A stretch of DNA of 64,000 nucleotides, from assembly GCA_015062305.1 (NCBI GenBank), contig SUUX01000001.1, positions 154,808 through 218,807 on the forward strand. The letters are read 5' to 3'. The stretch comes from Alphaproteobacteria bacterium. GTDB lineage: Bacteria; Pseudomonadota; Alphaproteobacteria; RF32; CAG-239. Each line of letters opens with the position of its first letter. Within the stretch, counting starts at the first letter, position 1. The notes beneath the pieces are model-generated. The model was not told the origin of the DNA. It saw nothing but the letters and a program-made list of their open reading frames with translations, and did no database searches. This document shows, piece by piece, positions 13,385 through 14,584 of the stretch. Made by a program: the position numbers and the translations under genes.

Positions 13385-14113
13385 ATGAATTATTTTTTGA
13401 TACGACGTTTAGCTCCATTTTTTGTGGTGTCGGTTTTGGTGGAATTTGTGACACTTGCTCTTTTGTTGTCGGTGGAACGCAGCTATGTTGATTGGGCAAT
13501 TATGCCCATGACCAAAACGGTGGGTATTTTGCTAAAAACAACTACAATTTCTTTCATATTTATAATGGTGCCGTATGTGCTGTATCTGTGGCTGATGCCT
13601 GCAAAGAAAATAAACACGCAGATTGATAAAAATATTACAAAAGCTATTTTTGGAATATTTGTGTTTTATAATCTGTTTGAAGAAACAATGTCTTTGGTGT
13701 TTTGGAATAAATTTTCGGCAGCTTTTAATATGACGGCAATCGAATATTTGTTAGATATGAGAGAAGTGGCGAGTGATATTACTCAAAACTATCTTTTTGC
13801 TGCATATATTGTAGGGTTGTTGCTAATAACCAGGCTTGTGGTGCGTACATTTGACAAATATTTGTTTGTTCAGGTCCCTAGCCCTCATTGGTTTAAGAGA
13901 ACCGTATATGCAATGATATATTTATCTTTTTGTGGTTTGATATATGTTAATATCAATGAAAATGAGTTAGAAATAAATGAAAATTATTATAATAACGAGC
14001 TTTCTAAAGATGGCACTTATAGCTTGGGAAGAGCTTTGTGGAAGAGCAATATAAACTATAAAGAACTTTTGCCTCTAAAAATAAAAAACAACAATATTTT
14101 TTCAGAAAAATAG
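13385..14113 (+). CDS. LtaS/sulfatase-family N-terminal membrane module only (catalytic domain absent; probably a truncated gene)
   Basis: TM-rich 242-aa ORF ending ...NNELSKDGTYSLGRAL...PLKIKNNNIFSEK*. The stop falls where the paralog at 9168-10583 begins its catalytic domain (KKPNLIMLIMES). The stop abuts the promoter of the RNA cassette. Confidence 0.45.
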   Translation: MNYFLIRRLAPFFVVSVLVEFVTLALLLSVERSYVDWAIMPMTKTVGILLKTTTISFIFIMVPYVLYLWLMPAKKINTQIDKNITKAIFGIFVFYNLFEETMSLVFWNKFSAAFNMTAIEYLLDMREVASDITQNYLFAAYIVGLLLITRLVVRTFDKYLFVQVPSPHWFKRTVYAMIYLSFCGLIYVNINENELEINENYYNNELSKDGTYSLGRALWKSNINYKELLPLKIKNNNIFSEK

Positions 14114-14123
14114 AAAAAAAATA

Positions 14124-14152
14124 TTGACATTTGTCATTTTTGGCTATATTGT
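14124..14152 (+). promoter_or_regulatory. Sigma-70-type promoter P1 with upstream A-tract
   Basis: TTGACA at 14124-14129 and TATATT/TATTGT at 14145-14152, preceded by GAAAAAAAATA. About 30 nt are near-identical to promoter P3 at 31467. Confidence 0.6.
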
Positions 14153-14157
14153 CACGT

Positions 14158-14297
14158 CAATATTTTATTTTTCTGTATGAATTATACAATCAGAGGCGCC
14201 GCTCCTAGCTTCGTGTGAAAAAAAATATTCTCCACCTTAAAACTACTAACCATAGGCTACTATACTGGAGAGATTAGGATGCACCTCTGATTTTTTT
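14158..14297 (+). ncRNA. Candidate structured RNA, copy 1, 5' module (long-range helix plus U-run)
   Basis: AATCAGAGGCGC (14188-14199) pairs with GCACCTCTGATT (14281-14292), followed by T7. Paralogous to 31502-31664. No conserved ORF. The 5' end is inferred from the promoter. Confidence 0.5.
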
Positions 14298-14559
14298 GAT
14301 ATAAACCAGAGCAATTGAGGGGTTTAGATTGATTTTCTGGTGGGGAACGGTATCAACTTCATGGCCTGAAAGATGCCCTTCCCTTTTATCTTGCACTGTG
14401 TATGTTGTGATCTACCATAAAAAAAATGTAACTTCTCTGACATCTTTCAACTACACAGTGCATCGAATGGTTTGCAAGCTGCCAAAGCAAACCTACTGTC
14501 TCAATGTTAACCGCCTTTTTAGGCAAGAGGAAATTACGAGTTAATTTCCTCTTTTTTTT
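14298..14559 (+). ncRNA. Candidate structured RNA, copy 1, 3' module ending in a strong terminator
   Basis: Hairpins ACCAGA/TCTGGT (14305-14340) and GGGAA/TTCCC plus TTTTAT. Terminator AGAGGAAATTA/TAATTTCCTCT plus T7 at 14526-14559. Confidence 0.4.
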
Positions 14560-14584
14560 ATTTAAAAAAATATTAAAAAAAATA

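Follow-up and report, generated by a model that had tools for sequence, protein, structure and literature searches.

What is encoded by two segments of bacterial DNA that open with the same promoter, close with intrinsic terminators, and share no open reading frame (ORF) in between? The segments, copy 1 and copy 2, lie in a 64-kb stretch of contig SUUX01000001.1 from an uncultured gut alphaproteobacterium; the whole stretch is called the window here, local searches covered the window, and positions are window coordinates. Judged from the sequence and its comparison with related species, the two are predicted to be paralogous, independently transcribed genes for structured noncoding RNAs (ncRNAs) of ~400 nucleotides (nt), each with a strong sigma-70 promoter and an intrinsic terminator, and it is very probable that they form a real ncRNA gene family. 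With a third unit, u3, they appear to make up an RNA family that is multi-copy, evolves fast, and is specific to one lineage, a subclade of uncultured gut Alphaproteobacteria. The family is of a familiar kind, that of multi-copy modular small RNAs (sRNAs), in an unusual form: ~400 nt, with a domain closed by long-range pairing and with new loop motifs. It is absent from Rfam 15 and was previously uncatalogued, the unnamed candidates in PMC8040213 not having been compared.

Structure and covariation of copies 1 and 2

Overall similarity between copies 1 and 2 is patchy. With the promoters removed, the local alignment of their bodies scores 36, against 20.3 +/- 2.4 in dinucleotide shuffles (z = 6.5); folding z-scores were likewise judged against shuffles. 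For comparison the dut locus was fetched from 65 related species (L-numbers designate individual loci; L210 to L214 were added later), and a covariance model, R1, was seeded with copy 1 and the upstream units of L010, L011, and L015, copy 2 being left out. The model found copy 2 at 29.4 bits (E of ~1e-3 in 0.6 Mb and ~1e-4 in 89 kb) and nothing else that was significant.

Pair covariation was assessed on five sequences (copy 1, copy 2, and the L010, L011, and L015 units) aligned to the covariance model, which cured a misalignment of copy 2 that MAFFT and RNAalifold had produced on mixed family members. In this alignment 96.1% of modelled cells are paired, compared with 80.7% in shuffles, and 15 of the 28 pairs have changed on both sides, values that none of 500 shuffles reached; sliding the partners lowers pairing to 33-59%. 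The G-U pairs in the helices agree with the strand that runs from promoter to terminator. The original prediction had proposed an unclassified RNA gene family and a covariation test on its homologs. Because copies 1 and 2 keep their structure by compensatory changes, which occur among orthologs as well as between paralogs, that reading is well supported, as it is by the lack of an Rfam match and of a conserved ORF described below.

The promoter, the helices, and the terminators proved to be much as the original prediction had them. The 14-mer AAAAAATATTGACA, searched with zero mismatches, occurs at exactly three sites in the window (14116, 14577, and 31459), and both copies match the sigma-70 consensus at 10 of 12 positions (TTGACA-17-TATTGT at 14124-14152 and TTGACA-17-TATTTT at 31467-31495). 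Both contain a GTATGAATT block. An outer helix with 11 of 12 positions paired is formed in copy 1 by AATCAGAGGCGC/GCACCTCTGATT (14188-14199 with 14281-14292) and in copy 2 by AATCAGAATAGC/GCTACTCTGATT (31533-31544 with 31649-31660); it runs straight into T7 in copy 1 or T6 in copy 2 and then into GATATAA(A)CC. One position of this helix pairs as G-C in copy 1 and as U-A in copy 2 (model columns 15/187), and helix 2 reads TCCT/AGGA in the one and TCCC/GGGA in the other. The terminator stems are 12 bp (14525-14553) and 9 bp (31875-31897), respectively. The features are as follows.

14105-14152, plus strand: copy 1 promoter, with an UP-like A-tract, -35 box TTGACA (14124-14129), and -10 box TATTGT (14147-14152)
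14160-14561, plus strand: predicted copy 1 RNA, ~400 nt, its 5' end placed from the -10 box (fold z-score -4.2; covariance model score 90 bits)
14188-14292, plus strand: copy 1 domain 1, with outer helix P1, an inner helix, an A8 tract, and CUCCAC
14291-14305, plus strand: copy 1 U-run (T7) and then the GAUAUAAA linker
14306-14340, plus strand: copy 1 hairpin 2, with stem CCAGAG/UUCUGG and GAGGGGUUUAG in the loop
14342-14493, plus strand: copy 1 hairpins 3 to 5 (14342-14383, 14393-14461, and 14469-14493), with A8, AACUUCUCUGACA, and GCUGCCAAAG in the loops
14525-14561, plus strand: copy 1 intrinsic terminator, a 12-bp stem and then T8
31445-31495, plus strand: copy 2 promoter, with an A-tract, -35 box (31467-31472), and -10 box (31490-31495)
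31502-31906, plus strand: predicted copy 2 RNA, ~400 nt, its 5' end inferred (fold z-score -2.0; matched by the covariance model)
31533-31660, plus strand: copy 2 domain 1, with P1 formed by 31533-31544 and 31649-31660
31659-31706, plus strand: copy 2 U-run (T6), the AAGAUAUAA linker, and hairpin 2 (31672-31706)
31707-31736, plus strand: copy 2 hairpin with stem GAGGAG/CUCCUC and loop end CUCUGGGUUA, the UUGGGUU-loop module of the family
31875-31906, plus strand: copy 2 intrinsic terminator, a 9-bp stem and then T9

Domain 1 is larger in copy 2 because of inserted sequence. A further block that had been proposed as shared, TTGAGGRG..ATTGA..TCTGG, is present as sequence in both copies, but its two occurrences are not structurally equivalent, since the block lies inside the loop of hairpin 2 in copy 1 and in a separate, later hairpin in copy 2.

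The stop codon of the upstream gene of 242 amino acids (aa), at 14111-14113, falls within the conserved AAAAATAG block of the copy 1 promoter. The tmRNA and tRNA genes of the window have a promoter of another type, and GATATAA was rejected as the -10 box of an internal promoter, there being no acceptable -35 box at the proper spacing. Palindromes of the form TGACA..TGTCA overlap the -35 box (TTGACATTTGTCA at 14124-14136 in copy 1 and TTGACAAAATTTGTCAA at ~5300-5320 on the minus strand of L008), and the half-site AAATTTTGTCA also occurs upstream of the promoter of a small gene described below; these may be a candidate operator for a shared regulator.

Tandem pair, wider family, and origin of copy 2

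Both units had been thought to run into convergent genes. This is so for copy 2, but between copy 1 and dut there intervenes a third promoter-to-terminator unit, u3 (14565-15053), whose promoter is of the same type as those of copies 1 and 2 (AAAAAAAATATTGACA).

14565-14614, plus strand: u3 promoter, AAAAAAAATATTGACAAAATTTCGTAAATATG..TATATA, conserved in related species
14620-15053, plus strand: predicted u3 RNA, ~430 nt, six hairpins and a terminator (stem 15017-15044, then T7)

Among the hairpins of the predicted u3 RNA are one of the UUCG type and one with UUUUUGGGUUA as its loop, and the fold z-score of this RNA is -6.1. Orthologs of u3 occur in four species (L010, L011, L015, and L012), and for this type 94 pairs are conserved across five species, 22 being compensatory. 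The copy 1/u3 tandem pair is kept in L010, L011, and L015 (dut identity 77-80%), where the upstream unit is homologous to copy 1, and it is present in more diverged form in L210; the pair is ancestral to a group of species. Its orthologs were recognized by reading the dut loci, beyond what sequence searches gave: blastn and nhmmer with the bodies of copies 1 and 2 against the 65 dut loci returned promoter matches only, with weak matches for u3, and none of L210 to L214 matched model R1, although L210 plainly has a diverged tandem pair. An identical 13-mer, AACTTCTCTGACA, lies in hairpin loops of copy 1 (14430-14442) and u3 (14743-14755) and is the sole exact repeat between their bodies.

Units with the same promoter type and the same modules were found at the dut loci L007, L008, L009 (two units), L016, L058, L062, and L210, and upstream of ppa in L014, L017, and L033. 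Across this wider family, whose RNAs would measure 300-450 nt, the bodies are mostly unalignable, and what recurs is an architecture: an AU-rich 5' leader, several long hairpins whose stems covary and whose loops hold short constant motifs, and a terminator. All units have a helix of 9-16 bp that closes a domain of 60-130 nt and is followed by U4-7 and (A)GAUAUAA or AUAUAAA, and this outer helix shows compensatory changes among orthologs (AAUCAAGGC/GCCUUGAUU, AAAUCAAAGC/GCUUUGAUUU, and AAAUUAAGGC/GCCUUAAUUU). Other modules are a UUGGGUU-loop hairpin with at least six mutually compensated stems, one of which is carried by copy 2; a mostly unpaired loop motif, YUUCUUUWGCCAUA, whose GCCAU core has GCCAC and GCCAA as its only variants, the three forms being complementary to AUG, GUG, and UUG, respectively, each with GC after it; GUGA-type terminator loops; and the UUCG hairpin.

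The dut, thyA, folA, extracytoplasmic function (ECF) sigma factor, Spy-like, and flagellin genes of the window (G+C content, ~37%) have counterparts on gut-metagenome contigs and on metagenome-assembled genomes (MAGs) labelled "Alphaproteobacteria bacterium," and the relatives of the organism include "Proteobacteria bacterium CAG:495" and Candidatus Scatocola. Among the loci examined, the units are present only in species with a dut identity of at least ~74%; in more distant relatives the 242-aa gene and the small gene stand close together, leaving no space for an RNA unit. The spacer that separates the 242-aa gene from dut is a hotspot, its content varying between species. A metagenome-wide search for the pattern CTCTGATTTTT..GATAT.AACC brought up no family members among the matches listed, which were mostly an unrelated and very abundant gut sequence, and scans of viral contigs for a body block and for the promoter returned nothing. 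L150, which is identical to copy 2 over 25 nt, was rejected as a family member, the match lying inside a coding region.

The small gene just mentioned (~100-150 aa, no Pfam family) is convergent to dut in most relatives (for example, at 4526-4873 in L007 and 4520-4888 in L008) and has a conserved promoter of its own, AAATTTTGTCATTTTTAGCTTGC...TGTGnTATAT; in distant relatives its promoter and leader, TATTAGTAT, are similar to those found with the RNA units, and the window holds no trace of a remnant of it. L008, from MAG SIG58 and among the closest of the dut-locus species, matches the alphaproteobacterial tmRNA at 942-1723, over ~780 nt compared with 355 nt in the model, so that its tmRNA gene appears to carry a large insertion.

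The history of copy 2 can be read from the spacer in which it lies. In the nearest other species, whose sigma factor is 76-77% identical, 120-150 nt separate the terminator of the Spy-like operon from the promoter of the DUF308 gene; in the window the distance is 594 nt, and the surplus of ~465 nt coincides exactly with copy 2 (A-tract, promoter, RNA, and terminator), which lies on the opposite strand. At this position more distant relatives carry different genes. Because copy 2 is missing from the spacer of the nearest species, it is a paralog that arose later from the copy 1 lineage by duplication, was placed together with its promoter and terminator in the interval between the Spy-like operon and the DUF308 gene, and has diverged rapidly since. 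Copy 2 is carried by all sampled strains of the window species, in which polymorphism amounts to 3-17 differences, too few for a test of selection; DNA of the species occurs in JGI 3300018493, 3300024269, and 3300024270, in ENA ERZ27317369, and in MAG GCA_045538005.1. In the L204 and L208 strains, the distal A-tract that precedes the copy 2 promoter is missing 13 nt, CCAAAAAAAAATA (window 31442-31454), and the RNA differs from that of the window at three positions (31676, 31770, and 31809).

A block of this kind recalls the alternative raised in the original prediction, a mobile promoter-RNA module, and its stronger form, a selfish cassette that is spread by recombination or in the manner of a miniature inverted-repeat transposable element and has no cellular function. 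The clean, species-specific insertion of ~465 nt and the variable content of the interval between the 242-aa gene and dut speak for mobility, and the module reading is supported in part. Comparison of the copy 2 junctions with L197, L200, and L202 revealed neither inverted repeats nor a target duplication, however, and copies are few, with only three in 64 kb and none in viral contigs. The structure has been held by compensatory changes over the divergence of species, the promoter is strongly conserved, and copy 2 is fixed in the sampled strains. We regard a selfish element as improbable, and ordinary duplication to a new site explains copy 2 as well as mobility does.

Known RNA classes, coding capacity, and cis regulation

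At gathering thresholds, the Rfam 15 scan of the window passed the alphaproteobacterial tmRNA and two tRNAs and nothing else. Scans of both loci at E <= 10 gave weak and unrelated matches, the best being RsaE, whose 28.8 bits fall short of the threshold of 79, and a scan of 13 related loci gave tmRNA and tRNA only, in keeping with the original failure to recognize any known RNA signature. 6S RNA has no Rfam match at either locus, where the predicted folds are multi-hairpin and unlike the one long hairpin of ~180 nt, interrupted by a central bubble, that typifies 6S RNA. The predicted transcripts have the generic attributes of stand-alone sRNAs, namely, promoter and intrinsic terminator consensus sequences, covarying structure, and no conserved ORF.

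The last of these points had been claimed at the outset, and the related species bear it out. A gene for a small protein or leader peptide starting at the ATG of GTATGAATT is hardly credible. Copy 1, copy 2, and L062 have the ATG, and the short peptides of L062 and L016 would, by eye, share RGSL. But the frames of copies 1 and 2 have 13 and 8 codons and differ relative to the conserved AUCAGA, the close orthologs in L010, L011, and L015 have no ATG or have other frames or stops, and there is no Shine-Dalgarno (SD) sequence. The block corresponds to GAUAAGAAUU or GAUAGGAAUU in orthologs, and the ATG is therefore not a conserved start codon; it is lost in orthologs reading GATAAGAATT or GATAGGAATT. 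With frames and starts unconserved, the candidate was rejected.

Could the units instead be cis-acting leaders, riboswitches or attenuators in which domain 1 and its U-run serve as a conditional terminator? That every unit conserves a helix leading directly into U4-7 would suit such a role, as would the small gene that follows the unit in L007, L008, L009, and L058. In the window, however, the next element after copy 1 is another promoter and the gene after copy 2 is convergent, which leaves no downstream gene to regulate; every unit ends in a strong terminator, and the small gene of the relatives has its own promoter. The interior of domain 1, 60-130 nt and variable, is unlike a ligand-binding core, and no riboswitch or T-box family of Rfam matches the window loci or the 13 related loci. 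A cis-acting leader is thus highly improbable, and it fits the data poorly, as do the peptide-gene and selfish-element readings.

Among known systems, the closest parallel is offered by the cuckoo RNAs, rows of adjacent hairpins in which the stems vary while an anti-SD-like loop motif stays constant, and which occur in many copies and clusters (PMC4615179, PMC8034643). Like the new family, the cuckoo RNAs (RSs0680/CcsR1-4, SmelC397, and relatives) are alphaproteobacterial, are built of modular adjacent hairpins with compensated stems and short constant C/U-rich loop motifs, and are multi-copy and often tandem; their paralogs occupy several loci, and their sequences are little conserved except among close relatives (PMC4615179, PMC8034643). 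Membership is excluded because none of the 20 units of the new family contains their loop motif, CCUCCUCCC, or CCTCCTCCC, used as a test for the cuckoo motif. The new RNAs are also two to three times larger and have the motifs UUGGGUU, YUUCUUUWGCCAUA, and U-run plus GAUAUAA, with no adjacent DUF1127 gene. Cuckoo RNAs have two to four hairpins of similar size; the new family shares the compensated variable stems and the multiple copies but has five to seven unequal helices, including a multi-branch domain closed by long-range pairing.

Three other groups are more distant. The new family resembles CsrB, RsmY, and RsmZ in length (300-450 nt), many stem-loops, repeated loop motifs, several paralogs per genome, and a strong promoter and a terminator of its own; it differs from them in having no GGA enrichment, loop motifs present once or twice per RNA, and no Rfam match. 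AbcR1 and AbcR2 of the Rhizobiales are a tandem pair of sRNA genes, each with its own promoter and terminator and with exposed C/U-rich anti-SD-like loops. The new RNAs are likewise tandem and C/U-rich but are ~3 times longer and have no sequence or Rfam relation to the AbcR RNAs. With the large structured RNAs that comparative genomics has brought to light (OLE, ROOL, GOLLD, and raiA, and the entries of candidate catalogues such as PMC8040213) they have in common a length of several hundred nt, many helices, GNRA or UUCG tetraloops, and occurrence in uncultured or little-studied bacteria; they differ in the lack of an Rfam match, much weaker sequence conservation, multiple copies, and a narrow distribution.

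Candidate functions and biological meaning

Taken as a whole, the reading that we favor, an ncRNA gene family whose members are trans-acting, base-pairing riboregulators, is on balance somewhat probable; the base-pairing mechanism by itself, argued from analogy, is tentative. Pairing in trans is favored because of the cuckoo parallel and the exposed C/U-rich motifs. The RNAs would act as riboregulators whose exposed C/U-rich loops and linkers pair with purine-rich translation-initiation regions of mRNAs, the pairing sequences being CUCCAC, ACUUCUCUGACA, and CUGCCAAAG/UUGCCAU in this genome and YUUCUUUWGCCAUA across the family. The helix with its U-run and the AU-rich linkers would be sites for a chaperone or RNase E; alternatively, the helix and U-run linkers may be leaky terminators that would release a shorter RNA of ~140-165 nt.

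Several observations weigh against the favored reading. The covariation result, good though not final as evidence, comes from an alignment fitted to the model and from five sequences, of which three are closely related, and the transcript ends were placed by consensus matches. The YUUCUUUWGCCAUA motif reached a log-likelihood of 57 by expectation maximization, compared with 27-33 in shuffles, but the same procedure on reverse complements gave 47, so the statistic is not clean; the motif is strong in the relatives and degenerate in copies 1 and 2 (scores 10.9-12.2). RNAs of ~400 nt with five to seven hairpins are larger than typical base-pairing sRNAs. A search of the 64-kb window for targets complementary to ACUUCUCUGACA or the GCCAU motif yielded nothing but the RNAs themselves and a single cyclophilin gene; this gene, whose start reads ATGGCTAAAGAA, was rejected as a target, being mismatched to this genome's own variants of the motif.

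The main rival to base pairing is a sponge for a protein other than CsrA. On this account, which we consider unlikely, the RNA would bind or sequester a protein, in the manner of CsrB/RsmZ or 6S RNA, with the UUGGGUU and UUGCCAU loops docking a protein that the abundant RNA titrates. A length of 300-450 nt, many hairpins, the same short loop motifs on variable stems, a strong promoter, and several gene copies are all in its favor. Against it, each loop motif occurs only once or twice per RNA, the loci have no linked candidate for a partner protein, and there is neither a 6S-like single hairpin nor an Rfam match. A CsrB-like sponge for CsrA is excluded because GGA motifs are few, at 3-5 per ~410-440 nt, and show no concentration in loops. 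A broader proposal, decidedly unlikely as it stands, is a new class of large, modular, multi-copy RNAs whose UUGGGUU and YUUCUUUWGCCAUA loops would dock either an RNA-binding protein peculiar to the lineage or a set of mRNAs at their start codons, and which would evolve by shuffling of hairpin modules downstream of an unusually conserved promoter, possibly with an operator, and by copying of entire promoter-RNA-terminator cassettes to new loci.

Elsewhere in the window, the last 16 nt of the tRNA at 36958-37028 fall within a 21-mer, AATCCATGTGAGGCAGCCAAT, that occurs three times at a spacing of 161-162 nt (37013, 37174, and 37336); this array of tRNA 3' ends (36958-37356) has the look of an integration site, or a partial tRNA, that was duplicated serially. 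On the minus strand, 39023-41672 holds three tandem paralogs of ~360 aa with a period of ~1250 nt and 79-93% DNA identity. The cyclophilin-type peptidyl-prolyl isomerase at 60269-60883, assigned by eye, has a Lys-rich N-terminal extension of ~50 aa, and the start of its gene lies 66 nt inside the longest ORF call.

The carriers of these units are uncultured Alphaproteobacteria of human and animal gut metagenomes, a group for which a limited literature search found nothing about ncRNAs. Promoter-driven, multi-copy RNAs of ~400 nt, as predicted here, offer a handle on posttranscriptional control in this group. Because standard covariance models miss homologs at ~80% dUTPase identity, as they do with the cuckoo RNAs, such families are likely to be under-counted in metagenomes. 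If the loops prove to act as start-codon seeds or to dock a protein, the family would serve as a useful model of modular sRNA evolution.

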